The notes under the pieces: generated by a model
Told to the model about the DNA's origin: nothing
Seen by the model: only the letters and a program-made list of their open reading frames with translations
The model's database searches: none
In this document: one piece after another, positions 2,658-14,637 of the stretch
Position numbering within the stretch: position 1 is the stretch's first letter
How the letters are laid out: every line of letters begins with the position of its first letter
Assembly: GCA_016176525.1 (NCBI GenBank)
Contig: JACOWZ010000003.1
Location: 537,925-601,924 of the forward strand
Direction of reading: 5' to 3'
DNA length: 64,000 nt
DNA from: Candidatus Colwellbacteria bacterium
GTDB taxonomy: Bacteria; Patescibacteriota; Minisyncoccia; UBA6257; Colwellbacteraceae
Translations under genes and position numbers: made by a program

Positions 2658-3176
2658 TTAGCGCACCCATTTGCAACCTGTTCTATTTTGTTTTGCTTGC
2701 TGTTCTGCTAGGGCAATTTCTTGCCTATATTTTGTGTTTGGTTGGTAGAATAGGGCTATAGCCATGCCTTCCTCGACAAGTTTTAGGTTAATATTCGCAT
2801 CCCCCACAAAAATGTAGCGCAAAAACCTGCCATATTGGTCGCTGTCTTCAATATCGCTTTCCAAGTGCACTTGCTTCATTAAAACCAATTCTTCTAGTCT
2901 AGTTTTTGCCGCATCGTAGCATATATGCCCGCGCTCGTCTGCATCAATGCCAAGCAGGCGCACCGAGTTGCCACTCTCTATAACAACAGTGTCGCCGTCT
3001 ATAACTTTGGTCACAACCGCTTCACTACTGATTTCGTTTATTGCTTCTTTATCAGTCTCACCGCCAAGGTAAATTTGTAAATTAGCATTGCCGGAGATAA
3101 CAATAGCCACACTGATTAAGAGCCCTACAATAACAATGCCGATTAATATTTGATACCTCTCAAAAAAGCTTTTCAC
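2658..3176 (-). CDS. Membrane-anchored thermonuclease (SNase-like) family protein
   Basis: N-terminal TM helix followed by an SNc-type motif LLGIDADERG (compare RLxGIDAPE). The length of 172 aa fits staphylococcal-nuclease-like proteins. Confidence 0.6.
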   Translation of the reverse strand: MKSFFERYQILIGIVIVGLLISVAIVISGNANLQIYLGGETDKEAINEISSEAVVTKVIDGDTVVIESGNSVRLLGIDADERGHICYDAAKTRLEELVLMKQVHLESDIEDSDQYGRFLRYIFVGDANINLKLVEEGMAIALFYQPNTKYRQEIALAEQQAKQNRTGCKWVR

Positions 3177-4204
3177 TCGTCGTCCTCGTCGTCGTCACTT
3201 TCTTCCTCATTTTCATCTTCGTCATCCTCATCCTCATCGTCCTTATCTTCATCATCCTTATCTTCGTCGTCTTCATCTTCTGCTTCGTCAATAATATTCT
3301 TAACCTTCTCGAACGAATCATCTGCTTCTTTTGCCAAACGTTCGGCTTCTTCAAAATCGCCGGCATTAAAGGCAGTTTTGGCCTGGGCTATTAAACTATC
3401 GAATTCCATAAATGAATCTGCTGCAAGCTCAACGCCTTCGGCTTTTGCTTCTTCAATCAACTCCTGCTTTTCATCTTGAGCCTCGCTAATCTCTTCTTCT
3501 GCGTCACTCCTTGCGTCTTCCTCGTCCATCTCCATGTCTTCTTCTAAATCATCATCATCAAGATCATCCTCCAGCTTATCTTTTTCGGCTTCAAGCGCAT
3601 CTATTGTTTTATCTTTTAACTCTTCGGCGGCATCTTTTTCTGCTTCAATTGCTTCTAATTCTGCTTTAAGTGTTTCTATAAGTTCGGCATCTCCTGCCTC
3701 TTTCGCGGCTTTAATTTGCTCTTTTAACTCGTCTTTTTGGATGTGGAACTCATCAAGTGCGGTTTCAAATACAGCCTTTGCTTCTTCTCTTTTTTGGTGA
3801 AACTCTTGGTTAATCTCATTTGCAAACTCGCTAACATCTTTGCCTTTTTGCTTCTCTTTTTCAACAATATCTGCAGCGCGCTTTAGGTGAACTTCGAAGC
3901 GCTCTTTTGCTTGGTCTAACCCTTTGGCATTTGCACCCTTGGTCTCTATCATCAGCTTTACCTCGGCCACGCGTTCGGCAGCAAACTTAATTTGCAGCTT
4001 TGCCTTGCCTTCGGCGCCGAATGTAAAAAACTCTCTAACTGATTCGGCCCACTTATCTAAGAAATAAAACAGGCTCTCCGGTGTTAGCCCAGCAGCCGGC
4101 AATTCTAAGTCGGCTTCTTGTGCGTAAACCGCAGATGCGCCCCCGACCAGGGCCAAACCGACCAAAACCGAAATAAGTATTTTTTTCATGTTTATATTAT
4201 ACAC
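3173..4204 (-). CDS. Secreted coiled-coil protein with a poly-acidic (D/E-rich) C-terminal tail
   Basis: Signal-peptide-like N-terminus MKKILISVLVGLALVGGASAVYAQ. The body is a long K/E-rich heptad-like region. The C-terminus is DEDDEDKDDEDKDDEDEDDEDENEEESDDDEDDE. The antisense poly-Ser ORF at 3150-3479 is an artefact of this repeat. Confidence 0.5.
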   Translation of the reverse strand: MYNINMKKILISVLVGLALVGGASAVYAQEADLELPAAGLTPESLFYFLDKWAESVREFFTFGAEGKAKLQIKFAAERVAEVKLMIETKGANAKGLDQAKERFEVHLKRAADIVEKEKQKGKDVSEFANEINQEFHQKREEAKAVFETALDEFHIQKDELKEQIKAAKEAGDAELIETLKAELEAIEAEKDAAEELKDKTIDALEAEKDKLEDDLDDDDLEEDMEMDEEDARSDAEEEISEAQDEKQELIEEAKAEGVELAADSFMEFDSLIAQAKTAFNAGDFEEAERLAKEADDSFEKVKNIIDEAEDEDDEDKDDEDKDDEDEDDEDENEEESDDDEDDE

Positions 4205-4269
4205 TATTTCGAAAGGCCGTATTGATTTTCTGCTATGTTTGGGCTAACTTGTAGCCAGGAGAGTTCCTA

Positions 4270-4866
4270 ATGAAAACAGCGCTAATCTCCGTATACCATA
4301 AAGACGGCATTGTGGAGTTTGCAAGACGCCTCTTGAAAATTGGCGACTGGGAAATCCTTGCCTCTGGAGGCACAGCAAAGCACCTTGAAAACGCAGGAAT
4401 ACCAGTAGAAGATGTAGCAACACTAGTTGGCAAGCCGATACTCGGCCACCGCGTTGTCACTCTATCGCGAGAGATTCATGCGGCGCTTCTTGCGCGAGAT
4501 ACCCCAGAAGATCAGGCAGAACTTGACCGAATAGGCGTGCCGCGCATTGACCTAGTTTGCGTTGATCTCTATCCGCTAGAGGCCGCGATCAAAGAAGGCA
4601 AATCTGCCGAAGAAGTGCAAGAATTGACTGACATCGGCGGACCAACCCTTCTGCGCTCTGCCGCAAAAGGCAGGCGGCTCGTAATAGCAGAACCGCATGT
4701 ACGAGAAACTGTTCTGCAATGGCTCAAAAACGGGCGTCCTCACAATCATAAGGAATTCTGCCGAGCCCTCGCGGCAAAAGCCGAAGCTACTGTAGCGCAT
4801 TACTGCCTAACTTCGGCAGCGTACTTGGAAAAGAAGGTAGTAACTCTGCAACGATACAATACCTGA
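4270..4866 (+). CDS. Standalone PurH N-terminal-like domain (MGS-like / IMP cyclohydrolase domain). It lacks the AICAR transformylase domain.
   Basis: ALISVYHKDGIVEFARRLLKIGDWEILASGGTAKHLENAGIPVEDV...VVTLSREIHAALLAR...IDLVCVDLYPLEA aligns well with the PurH N-terminus (LLSVSDKAGIVEFA...LLSTGGTA...VVVNLYPF). The protein is only 198 aa. Its GC content is higher than that of its neighbours. Confidence 0.6.
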   Translation: MKTALISVYHKDGIVEFARRLLKIGDWEILASGGTAKHLENAGIPVEDVATLVGKPILGHRVVTLSREIHAALLARDTPEDQAELDRIGVPRIDLVCVDLYPLEAAIKEGKSAEEVQELTDIGGPTLLRSAAKGRRLVIAEPHVRETVLQWLKNGRPHNHKEFCRALAAKAEATVAHYCLTSAAYLEKKVVTLQRYNT

Positions 4867-5411
4867 CCGCACCCTAGCGGTCTTTTTTTATTCTCTTTTT
4901 CTAACTTTTCTAAAATAGTTTTCAAATTGCCAGATATAAAAACAAGATTGTCAGGTTCTTTAAATCCCAGCTTCTTGTACCAATTTAGTGAATAAGAATC
5001 CTTAAAGGTTGTTGCTTCGAAATATTTTGCATCATATTTATCTATAGCCTCTTGATATAGCGTCTTGGATAACTGCACTCCTACTCCCTTACCCTGATAA
5101 TCAGGCGCTACAAATATTTCGCCATCGTACAGACAATTACCGTTCCACCACGGTTTTACTGCTGTAAAAAATGCTCCAACTATTTTGCCATCATCTTCAG
5201 CTAGAAAATCTAATTTATTCTTTCTATCAAACCAGTATTTTAATAATTTGTGTGCTGATTTTTCAGTCCACTTCTCGCCAACATCATGTCTTTTTGGGTC
5301 ATAGACCTCACAATATAACTTTGCTAACAAATTTAAGTCACCTTCTTTTACGCGTCTTATTGATACTTTATTATTCTTCATGCGGACTTTTTTGCTATTT
5401 CTTCTCGCCAC
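4800..5411 (-). CDS. GNAT-family N-acetyltransferase
   Basis: Motif A-like QGKGVGVQLSKTLYQEA and the general layout of a GNAT fold. 203 aa. Confidence 0.55.
   Translation of the reverse strand: MARRNSKKVRMKNNKVSIRRVKEGDLNLLAKLYCEVYDPKRHDVGEKWTEKSAHKLLKYWFDRKNKLDFLAEDDGKIVGAFFTAVKPWWNGNCLYDGEIFVAPDYQGKGVGVQLSKTLYQEAIDKYDAKYFEATTFKDSYSLNWYKKLGFKEPDNLVFISGNLKTILEKLEKENKKRPLGCGQVLYRCRVTTFFSKYAAEVRQ
4865..4890 (+). terminator. Rho-independent terminator. Hairpin GACCGCACCCTAGCGGTC followed by a T7 run.
   Basis: Perfect 6-bp GC-rich stem and a T-run immediately after the stop of the 4270-4866 ORF. Confidence 0.55.
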
Positions 5412-5935
5412 TTGATTAATTTGTATTGATCAACAAGTTCAATCGGCTTATCTTCTGAAAACCTTTCTGCCTCTAGAGTGAATTTGTTAGTAGTAATAAA
5501 GTATCCTTTTCCGTTTGTAATCTTACCAGCAATCGCGCCATAAAAATCTCTCATGGCTCCAACCCCAACCTCTTGAATAATAAATTTCTTGCACTGTATA
5601 TAGTGCTTAATCCCGTCTTTTTCTGCTATAACATCTATTCCTCCATCATAAGGGCCTCCGACTGATTCGGTTCTAAATCCCATTTCTCTAAACATCCAAG
5701 CAATATAATCTTCAAATTCCTTAGGTGAGTATCTACGGATCTTATTGATATAGTCCTTACCTGAAAGCCATTTCTCGTTTTTCGCAAATCTTCCTTGCTT
5801 TAATAAATTAGGCAAAACACTGTATATAAAGATGCGGGAGGCAATTACAATTAATAAAATTATCCAAATCGGCCAAAGTTTCCATAATAACACTAATACA
5901 TCTTTCAATATCTGTAACCAAAAATTATCTAGCAT
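5378..5935 (-). CDS. Membrane-anchored Mrr-cat restriction endonuclease-like protein
   Basis: N-terminal TM segment. Then DGGIDVIAEK...IQCKKF, which matches the Mrr_cat (PD-(D/E)xK) catalytic signature D-x-D...QCK. Confidence 0.55.
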   Translation of the reverse strand: MLDNFWLQILKDVLVLLWKLWPIWIILLIVIASRIFIYSVLPNLLKQGRFAKNEKWLSGKDYINKIRRYSPKEFEDYIAWMFREMGFRTESVGGPYDGGIDVIAEKDGIKHYIQCKKFIIQEVGVGAMRDFYGAIAGKITNGKGYFITTNKFTLEAERFSEDKPIELVDQYKLIKWREEIAKKSA

Positions 5936-6038
5936 AAATTTATTATATCACCCTATACAAAAACGCGCTTTTTCAAGCGCGTTTCGAGACTGTTTAGTAG
6001 ATTTAAAAAATCTTCCTGGTTGCATATATGTAATGATA

Positions 6039-6755
6039 TTAAATGTTTTTAATATAATGAATGATTACTGATATAAACCTAGATAATTTTGATGCTGAAT
6101 CAAAGAATAATGTTATCAAAGAAATAAAAACAATAATGACAATGTTTAATAATTGACTTGGTTGTAGACCAAAAACAGCAGTCACCATAAAATAGGACGC
6201 TAAAACAAAAAGAAACAGTGAAATTTCTCCTGAATAATCCATAGCTTTCTTAAACCTTGATTTTCTTTCTTCGGATAATTTCTTGTTTTCTTCCCTCAAC
6301 TTATCAGTGCTAGCTAAGTTACTTAGTCGTTGGAAGTATTCTTTTGTAGCCTCATAAGAGTTATCAAATTTCTCTCCTCTTCCTATTCTTCCAAAATATT
6401 CGTCCAAAAGATTCAGTCTTTCTTCTAGGGCTAAATTGTATTCATCTTGCATTTTTTGTAGGTTGTTAGATTCGTTATCTAACTTCTCTCTTACAATTAG
6501 CAAATTAAAAATTATTACTATAATATTCAAAACTAACCCTATGAAAAAATAATTATTGTTTGGAATATCAATAATCGACGATAACCCCAGCACTGCTCCA
6601 GAAAGTATCGTTACATGCTTGAAAAATCCCCATTTTTGCTCAGCTATTTTAATCTGAGTATCCTTAAAATCTTTATTCAAATCATTACGTAACCGAATAG
6701 CATCTTTTCTTTCTTTCGCTATTAGATCTATAAAGCGTTGCTGTTCTAAATTCAT
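6039..6755 (-). CDS. Hypothetical protein with a coiled-coil N-terminal half and a C-terminal multi-TM region
   Basis: 238 aa. Residues 1-150 are K/E/L-rich. The C-terminal 80 aa are hydrophobic. I recognise no catalytic motif. Confidence 0.35.
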   Translation of the reverse strand: MNLEQQRFIDLIAKERKDAIRLRNDLNKDFKDTQIKIAEQKWGFFKHVTILSGAVLGLSSIIDIPNNNYFFIGLVLNIIVIIFNLLIVREKLDNESNNLQKMQDEYNLALEERLNLLDEYFGRIGRGEKFDNSYEATKEYFQRLSNLASTDKLREENKKLSEERKSRFKKAMDYSGEISLFLFVLASYFMVTAVFGLQPSQLLNIVIIVFISLITLFFDSASKLSRFISVIIHYIKNI

Positions 6756-6818
6756 AAATTTATTCTCCTAATTTTTTTTTATTGGGTAGTTATTTTATTT
6801 TCTGTTTGCCTTACTATG

Positions 6819-9512
6819 TTATTTTTTATCAAAAACCCTCACGATTTCGTCAAAGTTTCTCAGTTTATCCCTTTCCCATTCCTCTTGCTTTATATAAAGG
6901 GCTTTATAGACAACTCGACTTTGCCGATCGTTTACATCCTCACACCACTTTTGTAATCTTTCAAACTTTAATTTATCGTCATCTTCTTCTCGTCCTTTTG
7001 TTTCAATAATGTAAACGGTTTTCTCATTTTTCTTCACAAAGAAATCAGGGTAGTAGGTGGCTATAAATCCCTCTGAATTTTTATACTCAATTCTAAGCGC
7101 GTTTGCTTCTTTGTTTTGGAAATTCTTTGCAAAAGAAATAACATCATCACAATTTTCAAGAAAATCAGAAAATACCAGCTCAAAATCACTGTCGCCGACA
7201 ATCTTATTGAAGACTGATTTTTTCGGTATTAAGTATGATTTGTCATTCACGACAAAGGGACGCGCCTCGCTGATTTTTATATAATTCTTTATCTCCGTAT
7301 CTCCCTTGTCTTCAACTGTAAGCTCGTTAATAGCTTTCTTGAAAGAATCTTTTATGAGCCTAATATACTCAACCTCTGACAAGTTTCTTAAAACATTGAG
7401 GTCTGACAAATTCACAGGGCTGTCAAACATATTATTCTGCACAAACTCTCTTACCTTGCCGAACAAAATGTCGTAGCAACCGAACAGACGCAGCTCCCGC
7501 ATTATTGCTTGCGCAAAAAATCCGACAACGCTTTGATAATCTGGCTCAATCTCACCGGAAAGTATTGTCGTGTGATGCGTTTTCTCATCCACCACATCTT
7601 TAAAAACAATTTCTCTCTTTTCTTCTTCAGAGAAAGTCTTTACTTTGACTTTTTTATTTCCAAATTTTGAAACATCTAACTCGGCAAGGTTTTTATACTC
7701 TCTCTGAATCCTCGGAGACATCACCGGAATCTCAATATCAAGTTTCTCAATATCTTTTTTCGGATTATCTTTATCAACCTCAATAACCATCGGGGCTATT
7801 GGCTTCGCACCTGTCCCCATCGCTTTCTTCTCAAGAATAACGCCCTCGCCTTTGATTGACTCAACAAAGTCCATAAAAGCGGGTGTTCCCACAACACTTA
7901 CATACTCCTCAACATCATCTCTGCCGAAAAACATTCTGCGTAGTCCTCGCCCAAGGGTTTGTTCTGGGAGAATTTTTGAATCGGCGGCATAAGGTCGTAA
8001 GCCAACGATAGTCGTTACATTTTTTACATCCCAACCCTCTTTCAACATCATCACGGAAATGATCACCTTGAACGGACTTTCCCAACTATCAATTTCATTT
8101 GCTTGCTTTCTAAGTAAATCTAATTCTTCTTTGCTTTTTCCAGAAACGCTTTCAGAAATTTCACCACTCTTATTTGTGTGAATGGTCAAAACCGCGCCTT
8201 TCAAACTTTTAAAACTCGTCTCAATGTATTCCGCCACTTCATCGCAGTTTTTTGTATCATCCGTCATTATGAAAAGAATGGACTTTTTACCCATCGGCTT
8301 TAATACATCGTATGTTTTCTGCCATTCCTCAATACCAAGATTTATATAATCTCTGTATTTTTCGCTGAATAGCGTACTCTGATTTTCTTTCAATTTTCCT
8401 CGGCTCGCCGCGTCCGGCGCAACAGGATTTTTTACAACTCTTTGATGTATCGCTTCAACAAGCGGATAATCAGAAATCGTCTGCACAAAAATAGAACCGT
8501 CATTCTTTTTTGGGGTAGCAGTAAGGTCAATCTGCAAAGATAATCCAGTCCCTTTCTGTTTCAGTCGATTGTCTATGTCGGTAATTGATTTAACCCAAGC
8601 AGACTTATCATCGTGCAAGTGATGGGCTTCGTCATTGAGCACGATAAGCTCGTCTATGTCTCTTACAATCACTCCGAGATCAACCTTAGAATCGCTCGTT
8701 TTAGTAACCGGCTTATCGCCTAAGAAATAGCGGGAAGTATCCTCATCATCCGCGCTTGCGTCTCTTATATCACTTTCAAAAACTCTATGGATATTGGTCA
8801 AAAATATATTTCCTGTGTCGGAAACATTGCGTAAATCATCCTGCAAATGCAAAGTCATTTGAAAATCGTCCTGCCAGTTTTGCCCATGATATCCGTTGTC
8901 AGGCAAAACAGGATCGCTAAAGAAGATTTTTAACCCCTCAAAATCATTCTTGATTCTTTCAAAAACAATGACATTCGGAGTTATCAAAAGAAAGTTCTTT
9001 GCCAAACTTGAATCTTCTTCATATTTTTTATGAAAATATGCCCATGCGATTACCAAACTCATCACTTTAGTCTTGCCCGCGCCTGTCGCCATCTTAATAA
9101 CAAAGCGAAGCCATTCCTCGGTAAACATCTGCGGACTTAACACGCCAGTCGTGTTGTAACGAATAAGATCGTATTTATCTTTTACTTTTGCCACCTCGTA
9201 AAGCCACACGACTGTTTCTAGCGCCTCCCTCTGTGCGAAATAGTATTTGAATTGAGTTGATGCTCCATGCTGGTCATATAAAATATGTTTTTCCCTAAAC
9301 CACCAATTCAAAAGCGACTTAGAAGTATCACTTGCTCCCTCATAATTTTTATCTCGCCATTCTTTTACTTTTTCACGGAGTCCTGCAACAAGAGGCGGTA
9401 GGAGTTTTTGAATAGCTCCTTTTTCCCGCAAATCCTCGTCAGCAGGAAACCATCTGATTTGAGGGTCAAGTATCGCATATGGGTCTTTGGGAAAATCCTT
9501 GTGTAGGGCCAT
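6819..9512 (-). CDS. res: Type III restriction enzyme, Res subunit (SF2 helicase plus C-terminal PD-(D/E)xK nuclease)
   Basis: Walker A MATGAGKTKVMSLVIAWAY. DEAH box LVLNDEAHHL. Helicase motif VI-like QTLGRGLRR. C-terminal nuclease motif YYPDFFV...VYIIETKG. 897 aa. Confidence 0.8.
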   Translation of the reverse strand: MALHKDFPKDPYAILDPQIRWFPADEDLREKGAIQKLLPPLVAGLREKVKEWRDKNYEGASDTSKSLLNWWFREKHILYDQHGASTQFKYYFAQREALETVVWLYEVAKVKDKYDLIRYNTTGVLSPQMFTEEWLRFVIKMATGAGKTKVMSLVIAWAYFHKKYEEDSSLAKNFLLITPNVIVFERIKNDFEGLKIFFSDPVLPDNGYHGQNWQDDFQMTLHLQDDLRNVSDTGNIFLTNIHRVFESDIRDASADDEDTSRYFLGDKPVTKTSDSKVDLGVIVRDIDELIVLNDEAHHLHDDKSAWVKSITDIDNRLKQKGTGLSLQIDLTATPKKNDGSIFVQTISDYPLVEAIHQRVVKNPVAPDAASRGKLKENQSTLFSEKYRDYINLGIEEWQKTYDVLKPMGKKSILFIMTDDTKNCDEVAEYIETSFKSLKGAVLTIHTNKSGEISESVSGKSKEELDLLRKQANEIDSWESPFKVIISVMMLKEGWDVKNVTTIVGLRPYAADSKILPEQTLGRGLRRMFFGRDDVEEYVSVVGTPAFMDFVESIKGEGVILEKKAMGTGAKPIAPMVIEVDKDNPKKDIEKLDIEIPVMSPRIQREYKNLAELDVSKFGNKKVKVKTFSEEEKREIVFKDVVDEKTHHTTILSGEIEPDYQSVVGFFAQAIMRELRLFGCYDILFGKVREFVQNNMFDSPVNLSDLNVLRNLSEVEYIRLIKDSFKKAINELTVEDKGDTEIKNYIKISEARPFVVNDKSYLIPKKSVFNKIVGDSDFELVFSDFLENCDDVISFAKNFQNKEANALRIEYKNSEGFIATYYPDFFVKKNEKTVYIIETKGREEDDDKLKFERLQKWCEDVNDRQSRVVYKALYIKQEEWERDKLRNFDEIVRVFDKK

Positions 9513-9517
9513 AAAAT

Positions 9518-10138
9518 TTATATTTCAGAACTCTTTTGCGGTTGAGAATTTGGTTGTTGCAATTTTGACTGCACTGGATTATTTATTAATAAAATATCTA
9601 AATCTTTTGTATCTTTTAAATAAGCTCCATCAATAATATCTGTGACCAATCCGAATTTCTCAGCTTCCTCAGAAGATAGTACAGCTCCACCATGCACTTC
9701 TTTATTTACGATACTTTTCTTCTTTCCCGTTACTTTTGAAATTACCTCGGAATAATCATCAGTAATCCTTTGAATCAATTTTGCCATTTCGCTTAGTTTA
9801 GTCGGGTTAAATTGTCCATTAAGTGTTGCAATTGCTTCATGAAGTACAAAACGACAACTTGGTGCCGCAATTCTTCTTTGACCGGCGCAGAACATCATTA
9901 CAGCGGCGCTATCAACGTTCCCCATTCCAATTGTCGTTTTTGAGATATTGATTTGCCTAAGAAAATTGTATGCTAAAAGACCGTGATCAGATGATCCACC
10001 CGAACTTGATATCTGGAGAATTATCTCATTTATAGGTTTTTCTGGATTTTGTTGAGCAAGCTTAATAGTAATAAATTTTATTAGATCATTTACTGAACCC
10101 TCGGAAACATTTGCATAAAAATTAATTAATAATTTCAT
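9518..10138 (-). CDS. ClpP-like (S14/S49 clan SK) serine protease family protein
   Basis: ISSSGGSSDHGLLAYNFL resembles the ClpP NSPGG region. NVDSAAVMMFCAG resembles the ClpP active-site Ser context AASMGAFLL. RFVLHEA resembles the ClpP His region. A C-terminal Asp region SSEEAEKFGLVTDII is present. 206 aa, with no TM helix. Confidence 0.55.
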   Translation of the reverse strand: MKLLINFYANVSEGSVNDLIKFITIKLAQQNPEKPINEIILQISSSGGSSDHGLLAYNFLRQINISKTTIGMGNVDSAAVMMFCAGQRRIAAPSCRFVLHEAIATLNGQFNPTKLSEMAKLIQRITDDYSEVISKVTGKKKSIVNKEVHGGAVLSSEEAEKFGLVTDIIDGAYLKDTKDLDILLINNPVQSKLQQPNSQPQKSSEI

Positions 10139-10487
10139 AATTTTCTTCTAAAAGTTTTTTTATTATTTCTAATTGTTCCTTGTTTTGTTCTGATAACTCT
10201 TGAACTTGCCTAAGAAATTCCTCATTTATTTTTTGTGTTGTTTCAACAGATTCTATTTTCCCAGAATATTCGCTGTATGCGGCATTGTTATATCTCATTT
10301 GATCAAGGAACAAGCCAATCACCGAAATAATAACTGCAACCAGAGAAACAAGAACCGATGCCACCACCGCAATAAGAATGTTGTCAATTTTATCAAATCG
10401 ACTCTTTACTTCCGGAGGCATCCCAGTTACAGGAGCATCTCTTTCTGGAATTGTAATTAAGGGTTTTTCCATATCAATATATTCCAA
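10122..10487 (-). CDS. Small single-pass membrane protein with a C-terminal coiled coil
   Basis: The central hydrophobic helix is ILIAVVASVLVSLVAVIISVIGLFL. The C-terminus is Q/E/L-rich. It overlaps the next gene by 17 bp and the previous gene by 14 bp, so it is tightly coupled to both. Confidence 0.35.
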   Translation of the reverse strand: MEYIDMEKPLITIPERDAPVTGMPPEVKSRFDKIDNILIAVVASVLVSLVAVIISVIGLFLDQMRYNNAAYSEYSGKIESVETTQKINEEFLRQVQELSEQNKEQLEIIKKLLEENYEIIN

Positions 10488-10686
10488 TTATTACGTGGAC
10501 ATTATTTTCCTCTCGTATCTCTAAATCTCTACCAATATATTTGGATAAATCTATACCGCCGAAAGAAACATTTTTGAATCTAGCTCCAGGTCCGAACTGA
10601 ACACCACCGATTCTTATAATCTTTTCCTTCGATTCGATACTACCATCAGCATTTACATTGAAAACCTCGTGAAAATTGATGCGCAT
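10474..10686 (-). CDS. Small hypothetical protein of 70 aa
   Basis: ORF packed with a 4-bp gap after the mod stop and a 14-bp overlap with the next gene. I recognise no motif. Confidence 0.3.
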   Translation of the reverse strand: MRINFHEVFNVNADGSIESKEKIIRIGGVQFGPGARFKNVSFGGIDLSKYIGRDLEIREENNVHVIIGIY

Positions 10687-10690
10687 ATTT

Positions 10691-12853
10691 TTATATTTTG
10701 ACCTCTATCACCCTAGTGGTGTCATTCCCGAAAATATCGACGACTTTTACGGCAATTTTGTGTTTGCCTTTTGTAGCAACTTTTGGAGAAGTAACGAGGT
10801 CAAGATTTCTGTTCTTTTTGGTACGGAAACTCTGCCACTCGTTGTCAAAAATATAATCGCCCGTCCATACTTCTTTTTCCTCGCCACCTTCCACAACCTT
10901 GATGATTTCTTTTCTGCTTGCAAAATCAAAATCAACTGCCCAATAGTCAATCCAGTCGCTCCATTTTTTAGTCAAAATTTCTTTTGAAATTTCTTCAGTT
11001 TTCTTATCTTTTGAGATTTTTACCACCTGACCATCTTCTACCACAACTTTAGATCTACCGGGGCGCAATGCCTCGGCAATTTCGCCTGAATTGTCCTGAT
11101 TGTAGAAAACAGAAAAATTTATCAGTTCAATAGAAATTTCTTTGTCATTCCCTCGTCCTTTCACAATCGGTTTCACTTCAATAAACGCGACATCATAGAA
11201 CTTCACTTGACCCTTTTCTACCACCTTTCTGTCAAAAACTTCTCGCGGAATTATCCTAAAGGCGATATCAATGCCTTGATCTTTGTACTCTGTAAAATCA
11301 AGTCCCATTTCATAATCAAACCCAAGAACATCAACTTTAGTGATTCCTTTTTCTTTACACTCTTTTACGATGTCCTGCACGAATTTAGAAGAAACGGGAG
11401 TATTGATGGGTCCCACCGCCACAAGGCGATCTCTTTTCTTGCCGATAACATTCACGAAAGACTCTACTGGCTCGGCTTTGTATGCAGAGAGAATAAGTTT
11501 TACAAATTCCTTTTCTTTCCTTTCGGCTTGTCTGGCTTTTTCTTCCGCTCGCAAATCATCATTTGTCGCGAGGAAATTTTCTCTTTCATATCTTCCAACA
11601 TTCAAAATCTCAAAAGCTCTAAAGTCCCCCCCCTCTTTTTTTAGTTCTCTTTGCACGTCAATCATTCTTTTTCGTGAAGTATGTATGCCGAATTTACCCA
11701 AATCTGACCCAATCCATCTTCTCTGTAGTTTCTCTGCTACCTCTAATGTAGTCCCGGAGCCACAGAAAAAATCTGCTACTAAGTCATTTGGTTCGGTTGA
11801 AGTCTCAATTATTCTCCTTAACAATCCGAATGGTTTTTGTGTTGGGTAACCAAGATACTCGGATGAACCACTAATGAGCGGTTTCGTATCGTCTGCGTCC
11901 CATACATCTCTTACATAGACTTCGGCGTAGTGCTGATTAAATAGTTTATCTTTCAATCTATCCGGAAGTGCTTTTCTACTTGCAATACACTCTTCTATTA
12001 TTTTAATGTCTTTTTCTGTAAGATCGTTAATTTTTGCTTCATTTAATTTTGTGTCAATGAATGGTTTCTCGTATTTAATTTTTTCTTTCGTAGCTTTGAA
12101 AATATAGCCGTCTTTATTTTTTGCATAGTAGAAGATCGTATCGTGTTTTCGTGCATAGAATTTTTTACCAACTCCTTGAATACGATAACCCCACGTGATT
12201 TCATTTAATAGATTATCTTTACCAAAAATTTCATCTAGTACCAATCTCATATACGCATTAACTCTATAATCACAATGCACATAGATACTTCCATTGTCAG
12301 CAAGGAGTCCGTGCATTAGTCTTAGTCGTTCATAAATCATCGTGACAAAACTATCAGCACCCTTACCCCAAGTGTCGCGGTAGGCGATTTCTTCTATAAC
12401 TGACGGCTTTTTTGTAAAACTTTCTTCGTCCTCGCCATCTCCGATTTTAATGTCCATTGAAAAATCCGCGCCGACATCGAAGGGCGGGTCAATATAAATC
12501 AATTTCAAACCGCCCTGCGCCTCTATTTCTTTGCGAAGCGGACCGTTCTTAAGAGAGGAAAGAATCAGCTTATTGTCTCCCCAAATCAATTTATTCGTCC
12601 AGCCGGTAATTTGCCTTCCCGTTGTATCCCAAAGAGTGCCGGAATCTCCAAATTCTCCTTGTCGTGGTTCATCTATTTGTTCAATAACTTGAAAAGGCAA
12701 GACAACATTCGTTACCTCATTTGTCTTTCCGTTCCAAAGAAGCTCAACCTCTCTGTCATCGTCAAACAACAAAAACCGATATTTCTCCGGAAGCGGTTTA
12801 CCCACTTCCAAGTATTTCACAATATCTCGTTTTTCGTTATCTGTTAATTTCAT
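10691..12853 (-). CDS. mod: Beta-class N6-adenine/N4-cytosine DNA methyltransferase (Type III Mod-like) with a roughly 300-aa C-terminal extension
   Basis: Motif IV DPPF (LIYIDPPFDVG) precedes motif I FFCGSGTT, which is the beta-class order. The N-terminal LIWGDNKLILSSLKNG is typical of Type III Mod. The ORF track extends to a GTG at 13045 inside a perfect palindrome. The ATG at 12851-12853 (MKLTDNEKRDI...) is the more plausible start. Confidence 0.75.
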   Translation of the reverse strand: MKLTDNEKRDIVKYLEVGKPLPEKYRFLLFDDDREVELLWNGKTNEVTNVVLPFQVIEQIDEPRQGEFGDSGTLWDTTGRQITGWTNKLIWGDNKLILSSLKNGPLRKEIEAQGGLKLIYIDPPFDVGADFSMDIKIGDGEDEESFTKKPSVIEEIAYRDTWGKGADSFVTMIYERLRLMHGLLADNGSIYVHCDYRVNAYMRLVLDEIFGKDNLLNEITWGYRIQGVGKKFYARKHDTIFYYAKNKDGYIFKATKEKIKYEKPFIDTKLNEAKINDLTEKDIKIIEECIASRKALPDRLKDKLFNQHYAEVYVRDVWDADDTKPLISGSSEYLGYPTQKPFGLLRRIIETSTEPNDLVADFFCGSGTTLEVAEKLQRRWIGSDLGKFGIHTSRKRMIDVQRELKKEGGDFRAFEILNVGRYERENFLATNDDLRAEEKARQAERKEKEFVKLILSAYKAEPVESFVNVIGKKRDRLVAVGPINTPVSSKFVQDIVKECKEKGITKVDVLGFDYEMGLDFTEYKDQGIDIAFRIIPREVFDRKVVEKGQVKFYDVAFIEVKPIVKGRGNDKEISIELINFSVFYNQDNSGEIAEALRPGRSKVVVEDGQVVKISKDKKTEEISKEILTKKWSDWIDYWAVDFDFASRKEIIKVVEGGEEKEVWTGDYIFDNEWQSFRTKKNRNLDLVTSPKVATKGKHKIAVKVVDIFGNDTTRVIEVKI

Positions 12854-13010
12854 CTGTTTTTTATAAGAATCAGACTTATTATACACTCTTTTCTGTGATA
12901 AAATATACTTAAGAAGTATGCGAATATTCCCTAATAAATCATTTATACTAATACTCTCTGTTGCGATATTACTTGTGCAAATTTCGATTCTGGGGTTGAC
13001 AATGAAAGAT

Positions 13011-13048
13011 GGAGTGGCTAAAATCTCTGTAGAGATTTTAGCCACTCC
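13011..13048. promoter_or_regulatory. Perfect 38-bp palindrome GGAGTGGCTAAAATCTCTGTAGAGATTTTAGCCACTCC upstream of mod
   Basis: 18-bp arms around a 2-bp centre, seen directly in the sequence. It lies about 160 bp upstream of the preferred mod ATG. No T-run follows on either strand, so it is more operator-like than terminator-like. Confidence 0.4.
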
Positions 13049-13257
13049 ATCTAACTAACGCGTATCTTATTTCTCCCAATCTTTGATTATTAGCGATTTG
13101 CCGCGTTTGGTGACCACCACTTTCTGCCGCTCTTGCCATTTTAGATTCTTAACATGCTCAATTGGGAGGGTAACGTAATATGTGTGCTGGTTTTTCTGGA
13201 TATTTCGCACATTTTTATTTTTTAGTTGCCTTCTTACCATATGCAAATTCTAACACA

Positions 13258-13297
13258 AGAAAACACGTTTTAAAACTAGTTTTAAAACGTGTTTTCT
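13258..13297 (-). terminator. 40-bp perfect palindrome (20-bp arms) immediately downstream of the trhO stop
   Basis: AGAAAACACGTTTTAAAACT/AGTTTTAAAACGTGTTTTCT. It sits 3 bp after the trhO stop on the transcribed strand. It is U-rich, so a terminator is likely, though it is unusually long. Confidence 0.4.
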
Positions 13298-13299
13298 GC

Positions 13300-14184
13300 T
13301 TAACTCGCCAATCTACTTACAAATCTGCATTTGAGATTGCAAAAACCGCCGGATTTTTTATAACACTCCTCGCATATAATATAGTGTCTGTGGCACACGT
13401 CATATGCACAATTTACATAATTTTCTGACTTTACTCCGCATCTCTCACAACTTGAAACAACCTCGTGTCTAGAATCTTCTGTGTTAAAACCTATTAAAAT
13501 CCTCTTATCAAAAACATACAGCTTGCCCTTAAAGTCTTCGTTTGGATATTTCTCCATATATGAGTGTATTCCGCCTTCAAGCTGATAAACATTTTCAAAT
13601 CCGTTTTGCATTAAATACCCCGAGGCCTTTTCGCACCTAACTCCACCCGTGCAAACTGTTAAAATCTCTTTGTCTTTTAGGTGTTTTATTTTGGGCAGAA
13701 ATTTTGGAATATCTCTAAAATTCGGTACATTGGACAAGATTGATCCTTCAAAATATCCACTTTTTTGTTCGTAGTCGTTCCGCATATCAACAATATAAAA
13801 TTCTTTTCCGCTCTCTATCCATTTTTTCAATTCTTCGGGCTTTAGATACTTTCCTGTTATGCGGTTTTCTGCATTTTCTTCGGTTCCCAGTCCGCTTGTT
13901 ACAATCTCTTCTCTTGCTTTGATGCTCAACTTAAGGAAAGAAGCGCCAGTTCCATCGCTATATTTAAAGTGAATTCCAGAAAACAACTCGTCGGAATTCA
14001 TTGCTTCAACATATTTTGCGATATTGTCTTTAGTGCCTTCAAGCGTGCCATTAATCCCCTCTTTGGAAATCAAAATTCTGCCCTTTAAGCCGAGACGCAG
14101 GCAAAGTTCGCGCTGATCTTGAACCGCTTTTATTGGATCAGCAACAAGCACATATTTATAATAGAGTATTACCTTAAAACTCAT
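13300..14184 (-). CDS. trhO: Rhodanese-domain tRNA uridine(34) hydroxylase TrhO (YceA/UPF0176 family)
   Basis: ILYYKYV...ADP...GRILISKEGINGTLEG matches the YceA N-terminus (ISFYKYF..ADP...GRVYLAHEGINAQI). A rhodanese Cys loop and a C-terminal CxxC...C cluster are present. The start was chosen at MSFKVILYYKYV. Confidence 0.7.
   Translation of the reverse strand: MSFKVILYYKYVLVADPIKAVQDQRELCLRLGLKGRILISKEGINGTLEGTKDNIAKYVEAMNSDELFSGIHFKYSDGTGASFLKLSIKAREEIVTSGLGTEENAENRITGKYLKPEELKKWIESGKEFYIVDMRNDYEQKSGYFEGSILSNVPNFRDIPKFLPKIKHLKDKEILTVCTGGVRCEKASGYLMQNGFENVYQLEGGIHSYMEKYPNEDFKGKLYVFDKRILIGFNTEDSRHEVVSSCERCGVKSENYVNCAYDVCHRHYIICEECYKKSGGFCNLKCRFVSRLAS
14045..14113. repeat. 69-bp direct repeat, copy A. 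It lies inside trhO, where it codes for ...GRILISKEGINGTLE...
   Basis: It matches 16342-16410 with 4 mismatches in 69 bp. Confidence 0.7.
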
Positions 14185-14223
14185 TACACGAATTCTAACA
14201 ATTATTGACACCTAGGTCTAGGT

Positions 14224-14637
14224 ATGTTACCTTGCATTAACCCAGTAAGAACTGGGATGTACCCTAAAAACAAGGAGTGGAAACAAATGCAAGTGAGTAT
14301 TTTGGTAGAAAAGGCTCTAGCCTACGAGAACCAAAACATGGTTAGCCGCTATACCGAACGGTATGGCGTAAGTATGGAAACTGCTAAGGTTCTCTTTGAG
14401 GAATGCAAGAAATTCCTCGTGGCATGCGCAAAGACGAAGGATCCCATCTCGCCACCCAACAAGGATGTTGACGAGATGTGGCACTTCTTCATACTACACA
14501 CGAAGGACTACGCAGCCTTTTGCGAGACCTACTTCGGCAAGTTCATCCACCACGTCCCGACGGACAAGGTGGAGGGCGTAAACTGCAACGACTGCTCGCA
14601 GAGCCCGCCGGATTGCACCTCGCCGGCACAGCCCTAG
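14224..14637 (+). CDS. Hypothetical protein in a GC-rich patch. The likely start is the internal Met at 14287, MQVSILVEK...
   Basis: ORF with a higher GC content than its neighbours. Overlapping alternate-frame ORFs at 14396-14581 and 14478-14672 are typical of a GC-rich insert. I recognise no motif. Confidence 0.35.
   Translation: MLPCINPVRTGMYPKNKEWKQMQVSILVEKALAYENQNMVSRYTERYGVSMETAKVLFEECKKFLVACAKTKDPISPPNKDVDEMWHFFILHTKDYAAFCETYFGKFIHHVPTDKVEGVNCNDCSQSPPDCTSPAQP

Follow-up and report, generated by a model that had tools for sequence, protein, structure and literature searches.

In a genome of Candidatus Colwellbacteria (Patescibacteria), two small genes, one for a nuclease with a predicted membrane anchor and the other for a protein with four predicted transmembrane (TM) helices, lie at the promoter-distal end of a type III restriction-modification (R-M) operon, within a variable region bounded by trhO and a GNAT acetyltransferase gene. 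Do these genes form a module that attacks modified DNA and complements the R-M system, as proposed in a preliminary description of the locus, or are they independent genes that happen to be neighbors? Both ORFs follow res on the minus strand, in agreement with that description. In what follows, the window is the entire 64-kb stretch of DNA that was analyzed.

The neighboring operon (6819..13246, minus strand), delineated from the ORF list and Pfam, PADLOC and NCBIfam matches, is a type III R-M system, with the Mod methyltransferase and the Res helicase-nuclease encoded on one strand. It starts with a 59-aa ORF (13067-13246), followed by mod (10691-13045; PADLOC MTase_III, 3.3e-106), a 70-aa ORF (10474-10686), genes for a 121-aa TM protein (10122-10487) and a ClpP-like protein (9518-10138), and res (6819-9512; ResIII, 2e-17; REase_III, 1.6e-22; NCBIfam BPTD_3080-type, 5e-81), all on the minus strand. 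Flanking direct repeats were looked for at the edges of the island and none were found, and there was no Rfam match within 4000-14500. A TM-anchored SNase is also encoded in the window.

The gene at 5378..5935 (minus strand) encodes a 185-aa protein that was characterized using Pfam, PADLOC, AF2 and Foldseek. Residues 66-176 (5408..5740, the Pfam envelope) match the Mrr_cat catalytic domain, PF04471, with E=7.5e-26 and 90.9 bits (cutoff 21), across profile positions 1-114 of 115. The protein contains the motif YDGGIDVIAEKDGIKHYIQCKK; the active-site residues E75, D101 and Q114-C115-K116, along with D97, which also lies inside the domain, are invariant among 27 homologs with ~50-60% identity. 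The AF2 model (pLDDT 88.5) places an alpha/beta nuclease core after helices 2-19 and 21-51, and the best solved structures that Foldseek retrieved were AF1548 (1.5e-7), MspJI (6e-7), AspBHI and NucS. Thus, by profile, catalytic residues and fold alike, the protein is a member of the Mrr_cat PD-(D/E)xK family, and its initial identification as an Mrr_cat nuclease fused to a TM anchor, with conserved motif residues, is borne out. With the PADLOC profiles mREase_IV and PDC-S02, the match is restricted to the nuclease part (positions ~163-304 of 317-334) and does not extend over the full profile.

The anchor is the single strong hydrophobic segment of the protein, residues ~13-41 (5813..5899, minus strand; Kyte-Doolittle 2.62). 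Across the 27 family members, W21 and P22 within it are nearly invariant, and the family shares an invariant juxtamembrane motif, GEKW-S-DRDLL. The number of K+R residues in these proteins averages 1.4 before the TM segment versus 7.4 over the next 25 residues, and therefore the C-terminal nuclease domain is predicted to be located on the cytoplasmic side, a topology derived solely from the positive-inside rule. In some members of the family, the TM segment and Mrr_cat are followed by a C-terminal Topo-type Cys4 zinc ribbon; this ribbon, present in 14 of the 27 relatives and missing in the window nuclease, fits a cytoplasmic location.

In Pfam searches, the 185-aa protein matched neither Mrr_N, SRA or another reader domain nor DUF4041 or GIY-YIG, and residues 1-65 are accounted for by the anchor and a linker. 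Because the nuclease lacks a modification-reader domain, dependence on modification is unsupported: Mrr_cat is a catalytic module only, to which the relatives add nothing but the zinc ribbon. The earlier suggestion that the enzyme acts on modified DNA is accordingly not supported.

The 238-aa four-TM protein is encoded immediately downstream of res (6039..6755, minus strand; ORF list and AF2). Its hydrophobic helices span residues ~43-62, 68-88, 175-194 and 202-217, and the AF2 model (pLDDT 92.3) features long helices at 3-59 and 68-125, so that the original characterization as a coiled-coil plus multi-TM protein is a fair one. The protein belongs to an unannotated family: it had no match to any Pfam, NCBIfam, PADLOC or PHROG family, no specific fold match, and no profile or fold match to SLATT or other known membrane effector families. 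A word-indexed search gave 2 and then 7 proteins, and at E<=1e-3 the family includes ~110 representative clusters. A metagenome scan with patterns from a two-sequence alignment found nothing; the degenerate motif RExLDx[DE]xxxLxxxQDxY yielded 5 true loci among 24 metagenome matches and none among 13 matches in viral contigs. One member, P0127, is a 498-aa fusion whose extra C-terminal 260 aa matched nothing in Pfam or PHROG.

The signals around the two genes suggest how they are transcribed. The gap between the res stop and the membrane-protein gene is 63 nt, with an AGGAG ribosome-binding site (6765..6769, minus strand) and no terminator-like site listed by the scan in 6756-6818, and the gene is probably co-transcribed with res. 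It is followed by a predicted intrinsic terminator (5958..5985, minus strand) with an 11-bp stem, a GAAA loop and a U tract; RNA folding of 5936-6045 gives an MFE of -26.9 kcal/mol (z=-4.0), and none of 200 shuffled sequences folds as well. Next comes a putative extended -10 element of the nuclease gene, TGaTATAAT (5942..5950, minus strand), read directly from the sequence; the promoter scan reported GTGATA/GATAAT at 5951-5924. This element ends 6 nt before the nuclease ATG, and since a Shine-Dalgarno sequence is absent as well, the nuclease mRNA is probably leaderless. With a terminator and a separate TGnTATAAT promoter between them, the nuclease and membrane-protein genes are predicted to be separate transcription units.

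The two genes do not co-occur elsewhere, either. By tblastn, none of 80 nuclease-homolog loci contains a homolog of the membrane protein, Res, the ClpP-like protein, the 121-aa TM protein or the GNAT acetyltransferase, and none of 13 loci encoding a member of the membrane-protein family yielded the nuclease when searched by HMM. Grouping the two genes together, as was done initially, is therefore not justified, and layered specificity for modified and unmodified DNA, with neither a pairing nor a reader domain behind it, is speculation. The GNAT gene (4800..5381, minus strand; Pfam Acetyltransf_1, 3.6e-14), whose ATG overlaps the nuclease stop codon through ATGA (5381-5378), was considered as a conserved partner of the nuclease and rejected: given that the 80 related loci have no GNAT homolog, this pairing is local.

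A pattern search detected nuclease homologs in at least 246 species genomes, mostly of Patescibacteria, with no conserved synteny among the loci compared. Among the 61 loci of at least 8 kb, 29 contain a recurrent R-M or defense gene within 10 kb, an enrichment that is qualitative, and about half show none of the recurrent defense genes. The family repeatedly adjoins R-M, helicase-nuclease and recombinase genes, the immediate neighbors being ResIII (8 loci), SLFN-g3/DUF2075 helicase (6), DUF2779 (4) and SWI2/SNF2 (3), as well as HsdR, HsdS, HNH and a Dsr1-like protein. One Pfam-annotated example adjoins an MmeI-like type IIG enzyme, and another lies within an integrated element beside AAA_15+DUF4276. 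Homologs are also found in phages and on plasmids, including the same architecture on a Nitrosococcus plasmid; phrog_17577 matches residues 17-175 of the window nuclease, anchor included. The locus encoding the closest relative (88% identical protein) has only 5388-5952 (85.5% DNA identity) and trhO in common with the window: DNA homology ends at 5952, 17 nt upstream of the nuclease ATG, and neither the R-M operon nor the membrane-protein gene is present at the nuclease position. The nuclease gene is thus accessory rather than a syntenic housekeeping gene. For a defense gene, the family is unusually conserved, with 50-60% identity across classes; this conservation and the invariant juxtamembrane motif could instead reflect a conserved cellular role.

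The contexts of the membrane-protein family are similarly varied. Some members trail, on the same strand, an AAA_15 (ABC-ATPase)+HNH pair and a type I R-M/OLD/GHKL/HEPN array, whereas others are located beside a Tag glycosylase, SNase or HTH repressor gene. Only 3 of ~10 informative contexts are clearly defensive, and the short length of several contigs precludes a judgment. There is no fixed neighbor across the 13 loci, and two members that are 72% identical (L099 and L136) have different upstream genes. The window gene has a low GC3 (0.26), in which it resembles the three inserted genes that separate mod from res. Because both families consist of accessory genes that recur in R-M, defense and mobile contexts, the description of 5378-13045 as a defense-rich variable region is reasonable and plausible; of the initial reading, this placement stands, but the pairing and the action on modified DNA do not.

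The explanation that we favor, with moderate confidence, is that the locus contains two unrelated single-gene cassettes beside the R-M operon, a stand-alone membrane-confined DNase and an independent four-TM protein. A short N-terminal helix together with one TM helix (or a two-helix hairpin) would anchor the nuclease in the cell membrane, with the intact Mrr_cat PD-(D/E)xK domain presumably facing the cytoplasm; the tether would keep the enzyme off the nucleoid and near the site of foreign DNA entry, where it may cleave phage or other foreign DNA on arrival, without depending on the adjoining R-M system, by analogy with the membrane-bound nuclease SNIPE (see below). The nuclease family appears to move between genomes as a single gene, settling among R-M, helicase-nuclease and recombinase genes. 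The 238-aa protein, predicted to combine four TM segments with a cytoplasmic helical bundle, has no fixed partner and is probably co-transcribed with res; as a guess, its most likely function is that of an independent factor in defense or exclusion at the membrane. Expression of both genes, as well as any role of the membrane protein, is inferred.

Several other explanations were weighed against this one. That the anchored Mrr-like enzyme and the membrane protein jointly attack modified DNA, complementing the type III R-M system, appears highly improbable: adjacency on the same strand, the mREase_IV matches of the nuclease domain, and structural similarity to the modification-dependent MspJI and AspBHI, through the catalytic domains only, are set against the intervening terminator and promoter, the lack of co-occurrence (0/80 and 0/13 loci), the lack of a reader domain, and the 88%-identical homolog, which has neither the R-M operon nor the membrane-protein gene beside it. 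Moreover, host type III methylation would make the chromosome a self-target unless the specificity differs, and nothing indicates such a difference. It is unlikely, although to a lesser degree, that the membrane protein is an accessory of the type III system that recruits or regulates Res or provides a back-up membrane effector, with the nuclease as an unrelated neighbor. The short gap after res with its AGGAG site and no terminator, the terminator right after the gene, the trailing position of relatives behind the AAA_15+HNH pair and the type I R-M array, and the low GC3 shared with the genes between mod and res all speak for such a role; it is countered by the lack of any neighbor conserved across the 13 loci, the different upstream genes of the 72%-identical pair, the members adjoining Tag glycosylase, SNase or HTH repressor genes, and the lack of a res homolog beside any other member.

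Patescibacteria lack nucleotide synthesis and depend on scavenged nucleotides, and a membrane nuclease could process competence-imported DNA for nucleotide salvage, or else function in repair or segregation. The spread and conservation of the family in this phylum fit such a function, as does the TM-anchored SNase in the same window. We nonetheless reject it as the main explanation and consider it quite improbable, because synteny is absent and the neighbors are accessory genes, namely, those for R-M, helicase-nuclease and recombinase proteins, with no recurrent com, pil or nucleotide-metabolism genes among the top neighbor clusters; in addition, homologs reside on plasmids and in phages, and the predicted cytoplasmic orientation and dsDNA preference suit ssDNA import poorly. 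A more credible alternative, though still an unlikely one, is an abortive-infection toxin: the N-terminal helices would be holin-like or would hold the nuclease in a latent state, and upon infection the released or activated protein would kill the cell by degrading both host and phage DNA or by permeabilizing the membrane. Epona, in which Mrr_cat is fused to a holin-like two-TM domain, provides a precedent, SNIPE is toxic once untethered, the defense-island contexts are compatible with this possibility, and the strong conservation of the W-P anchor and the juxtamembrane motif suggests more than a passive tether. Nevertheless, there is no conserved sensor domain or partner gene, the protein is tiny, with no evident protease or release mechanism, and SNIPE shows that direct, non-abortive action is possible with such a layout.

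If the favored explanation holds for the nuclease, localization-based self/non-self discrimination, which to our knowledge has so far been shown only for SNIPE, would have evolved at least twice, on distinct nuclease folds. Entry nucleases would then also be a common feature of a phylum reliant on DNA uptake. We know of very few defense systems described in Patescibacteria. A more specific proposal, which we put forward only tentatively, is that the TM+Mrr_cat family is the Patescibacteria counterpart of SNIPE, a PD-(D/E)xK nuclease on the inner side of the membrane that would destroy entering DNA, and the four-TM family a new anti-phage membrane factor at the tail of nuclease-based defense operons. 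Because Patescibacteria must import DNA to live, such a nuclease would set immunity against feeding, a trade-off as yet unstudied. The four-TM family could even correspond to LdgA or DdgA, defense genes specific to Patescibacteria that came out of a metagenomic selection (PMC12366544). With ~110 clusters and a confident model, this family is a small, well-defined test candidate. For annotation, the locus calls for caution on two counts: modification dependence should not be read into an Mrr_cat match, nor, in a variable region, should a neighboring R-M operon be taken as a sign of a functional pair.

Among known proteins, WP_004164110 of Nitrosococcus pNWAT01 has the domain order of the family, with a basic stretch linking a pair of hydrophobic helices to Mrr_cat and a Cys4 ribbon at the end; the phrog_17577 profile likewise spans the anchor and the nuclease. 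These plasmid and phage "restriction endonuclease" proteins with the TM, Mrr_cat and ribbon arrangement are known from sequence alone and are 30-40% identical to the window protein in the nuclease only. The E. coli Mrr and other type IV enzymes (MspJI, AspBHI) share the Mrr_cat core and the D...(Q/E)xK motif, with the structural match confined to the core; however, these are soluble proteins in which N-terminal readers, a winged helix in Mrr and an SRA-like domain in MspJI, confer modification dependence, whereas the window nuclease carries a membrane anchor in place of the reader.

Epona, a single-gene anti-phage cassette of the Vibrio cholerae chromosomal integron with measured activity (bioRxiv 10.1101/2024.07.02.601686), resembles the window nuclease in being a small protein with a membrane-spanning N-terminal part and Mrr_cat, encoded by a one-gene cassette among defense genes. 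This likeness is one of described architecture and of the common Mrr_cat domain; Epona is described as having an N-terminal holin domain with two TM segments, whereas the window nuclease has one clear TM segment and an amphipathic or hydrophobic helix. SNIPE, an E. coli enzyme that sits in the membrane, cleaves phage DNA as it is being injected and becomes toxic once released from its tether (PMC13190303), is also a single-gene system with an N-terminal single-pass anchor and a cytoplasmic nuclease (predicted, in the case of the window protein), and its tethering protects the host chromosome. However, SNIPE has the GIY-YIG fold as opposed to PD-(D/E)xK, requires DUF4041, a domain for binding both DNA and the tape-measure protein (TMP) that is missing in the window nuclease, and has a poorly conserved N-terminus, in contrast to the conserved anchor of the window nuclease family. 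SNIPE is an analog of the window nuclease, not a homolog.

The preliminary description took a 185-aa membrane-anchored nuclease (5378-5935, reverse strand) and a 238-aa membrane protein (6039-6755, reverse strand) as a joint extension of the defence island around the R-M operon, and suggested that the nuclease acts on modified DNA. The two genes are as described, and both plausibly lie within a defence-rich variable region; the proposed two-gene unit and the specificity for modified DNA were not supported. All genes of this region are on the reverse strand, in the order trhO-like UPF0176/rhodanese gene (13300-14211), a 59-aa ORF (13067-13246; AbrB/SpoVT-like by eye, no Pfam match), mod (10691-13045), a 70-aa ORF (10474-10686), a 121-aa TM/coiled-coil protein (10122-10487; weak SLATT_6 match, E=0.006), a ClpP-like S14 protease (9518-10138; Pfam, 2.6e-23; PHROG head-maturation protease, 5.7e-13), res (6819-9512), which forms the type III pair with mod, the membrane protein, the nuclease and a GNAT acetyltransferase (4800-5381). 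The remainder of the 64-kb window consists of the usual Patescibacteria housekeeping genes.

The 63 nt between res and the membrane-protein gene contain an AGGAG site and no terminator, and judging from the sequence, the R-M transcript probably ends with the membrane-protein gene. Between its stop codon and the nuclease ATG, there is a hairpin (5958-5985) with an 11-bp stem, GAAA loop and U tract (MFE -26.9 kcal/mol, z=-4.0; none of 200 shuffles as good). Next comes TGaTATAAT (5942-5950), with its end 6 nt from the ATG, and no Shine-Dalgarno sequence precedes this ATG. Given these features, the nuclease gene looks like a separate, probably leaderless, transcription unit, with a terminator and a putative promoter of its own between the two genes once thought to form a unit. 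The nuclease TGA and the GNAT ATG overlap as ATGA (5378-5381, reverse strand), which suggests translational coupling; this pairing seems to be local because no GNAT homologue adjoins other members of the nuclease family. The cassettes are also set apart by their GC3 values, 0.35-0.39 for res and mod, 0.33 for the nuclease, 0.26 for the membrane protein and 0.23-0.30 for the three genes between mod and res.

These three abutting or overlapping low-GC3 genes (9518-10686, reverse strand) split the R-M operon; no homologues of them were found in the other loci retrieved. To our knowledge, an insert of this kind has not been described in any type III system. A perfect palindrome with 22-nt arms (13007-13052) spans the mod GTG start codon, and a second one, of 40 bp (13258-13297), lies after the trhO stop and before the 59-aa ORF; they could regulate the R-M operon, as an operator or at translation, or terminate trhO. 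Elsewhere in the window, a second membrane-anchored nuclease (2658-3176, reverse strand; 172 aa), probably an extracellular DNA-scavenging enzyme, combines an N-terminal TM helix with a staphylococcal-nuclease domain (Pfam SNase, 6.6e-18), and the next gene encodes an acidic DUF5667 protein.

A word-limited search at E<=1e-3 found at least 769 proteins of the nuclease family, most of them 50-60% identical and nearly all from Patescibacteria, and a pattern-limited scan detected homologues in at least 246 species-representative genomes. We kept 80 nuclease loci, each with up to 10 kb on either side, and none of the 80 encodes a homologue of the membrane protein, Res, the ClpP-like protease or the GNAT acetyltransferase. 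The closest homologue (88% identical) keeps the orientation seen in the window and is also downstream of trhO, at a distance of about 5.5 kb; the intervening genes differ (a laminin-G protein, EamA and unknowns), and there is no R-M system. DNA similarity between the window and this relative is confined to 5388-5952 (85.5%) and trhO (80.4%), indicating that the nuclease gene is self-contained and that the trhO-nuclease stretch is a variable slot. Thus, the nuclease is linked neither to the R-M operon nor to the membrane protein.

Clustering of all ORFs in the nuclease loci revealed no conserved synteny. The recurring neighbours are a GIY-YIG + SLFN-g3/DUF2075 helicase (11 loci, usually immediately upstream), N6/N4 methyltransferases (11 loci), serine recombinases and MazG-like proteins (8 loci each), RadC and HsdM (6 each), type IIG enzymes (5), and, in adjacent positions, DUF2779 (5), HsdR (4) and a Dsr1-like protein (3). 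Among the 142 immediate neighbours, the commonest Pfam families are ResIII (8), SLFN-g3 helicase (6), DUF2779 (4), SWI2/SNF2 (3) and PDDEXK_1 (3), with type I R and S subunits and HNH next in rank; in PADLOC, the leading families are Nhi, AbiO, PDC-S14, Cas4-like and type I REase. Recurrent R-M or defence clusters occur within 10 kb in at least 29 of the 61 loci that span 8 kb or more; labelling was restricted to recurrent clusters, which makes this a minimum, and the enrichment is a qualitative one. Of two Pfam-annotated examples, one adjoins an MmeI-like type IIG enzyme, and the other is found beside AAA_15+DUF4276 within an integrated element that also holds a serine recombinase, Rep and a T4SS pilin. 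Outside the phylum, 'restriction endonuclease' genes on 295 plasmids and in 5 phage records match the nuclease domain at 30-40% identity; a protein of Nitrosococcus pNWAT01 repeats the full arrangement (two hydrophobic helices, basic stretch, Mrr_cat, Cys4 ribbon), and one PHROG family matches over both the anchor and Mrr_cat parts. Together, the neighbours, the lack of synteny and the plasmid and phage homologues identify an accessory, horizontally mobile gene of the defence-island type, not a housekeeping protein of this lineage.

In seven species (loci L019, L041, L046, L063, L068, L069 and L070; match at about 10001 in full-length loci), a MazG-like gene, the GIY-YIG + SLFN-g3/DUF2075 helicase and the nuclease form a co-directional array in this order. 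This array may be a true multi-gene module including the nuclease, as may a DUF2779-nuclease pair found in five further species. At another locus (L112:2434-5907, forward strand), a 1157-aa protein without a Pfam match lies between an MmeI-like type IIG enzyme and the nuclease homologue, an arrangement kept on at least four long contigs.

None of Pfam, NCBIfam, PADLOC and PHROGs assigns the 238-aa protein to a family. When 1.84 billion representatives were scanned in full with HMMER, 110 clusters emerged, mostly full-length (230-260 aa), with motifs at the membrane boundaries: R89-E90-x-L-D93 after TM2, Q103-D104-x-Y-N107, and D-Y-x-G-E177...F183 before TM3. The confident AF2 model (pLDDT 92.3) has four TM helices and, on one face of the membrane, a helical bundle built from the N-terminal helix and loop 89-174. 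Among the thirteen loci recovered, no neighbour is conserved, and even in a 72%-identical pair the upstream genes differ. The gene follows the type III res in this window; in a Jorgensenbacteria locus, an AAA_15 ATPase + HNH pair precedes it by 48 nt, with a LexA-S24-methyltransferase fusion and Fic nearby; in a metagenome locus, it ends an array of HSDR_N+N6_Mtase, OLD-like ATPase-TOPRIM, Methylase_S, GHKL ATPase and a HEPN (Hypoth_Ymh) protein. In one locus it follows a LexA-like repressor, and others place it beside Tag glycosylase or SNase. A 498-aa fusion form (P0127; L131:863-2359, L132:593-2089), with an additional 260-aa C-terminal domain lacking Pfam and PHROG matches, is encoded immediately behind an HTH-XRE repressor gene; toxin or defence cassettes typically have this layout. 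In this small sample, the contexts suggest that this gene, too, is a stand-alone cassette found in variable and often defence-rich regions, and this unannotated family could merit a direct test.

Nuclease residues 66-176 cover Pfam Mrr_cat (PF04471) end to end (E=7.5e-26), and the core of a confident AF2 model (pLDDT 88.5) superposes on AF1548, the sole solved relative by sequence, the MspJI and AspBHI catalytic domains, and NucS. As an alignment of 27 homologues (48-88% identity) shows no variation at the PD-(D/E)xK residues E75, D97, D101 and Q114-C115-K116, the enzyme should be active. Specificity for modified DNA had been drawn from the Mrr_cat name; a Pfam search of the protein found nothing similar to a reader of modified bases. 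The N-terminal anchor stands: residues 1-51 contain two helices, the second of which (about 21-41) is strongly hydrophobic. Across the family, K+R averages 1.4 in the roughly 18 residues before the hydrophobic core and 7.4 in the 25 after it, so that under the positive-inside rule, the nuclease domain is predicted to face the cytoplasm, be the anchor one helix or a hairpin. The C-terminal Cys4 zinc ribbon (PF01396, topoisomerase type) present in 14 of the 27 relatives and absent from the window protein fits a cytoplasmic, DNA-binding location. Anchor residues W21-P22 and the juxtamembrane residues 52-67 (consensus KGEKWRSDRDLLxWLR) are nearly as conserved as the active site, and a passive tether does not account for W21-P22 and the GEKW-S-DRDLL motif; the linker is modelled less confidently (pLDDT about 68-71).

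On the best reading, the membrane-confined nuclease would act on incoming DNA; the main rival is an abortive-infection toxin. Action on incoming DNA has a parallel in SNIPE of E. coli, whose N-terminus is periplasmic, whose DUF4041 and GIY-YIG domains are cytoplasmic, and which has one TM helix. SNIPE cuts phage DNA as it is injected and turns toxic once its anchor is removed (PMC13190303); the predicted topology of the window nuclease resembles that of SNIPE, whose domains it lacks. The architecture of the nuclease is widespread and already annotated but uncharacterised, and the window protein adds a member to it. One relative in design has been validated experimentally: anti-phage activity was measured for Epona, a Vibrio integron cassette described as Mrr_cat joined to a two-TM holin-like domain (bioRxiv 10.1101/2024.07.02.601686). 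The resemblance of the window nuclease to Epona is one of architecture, as described, and not of demonstrated descent.
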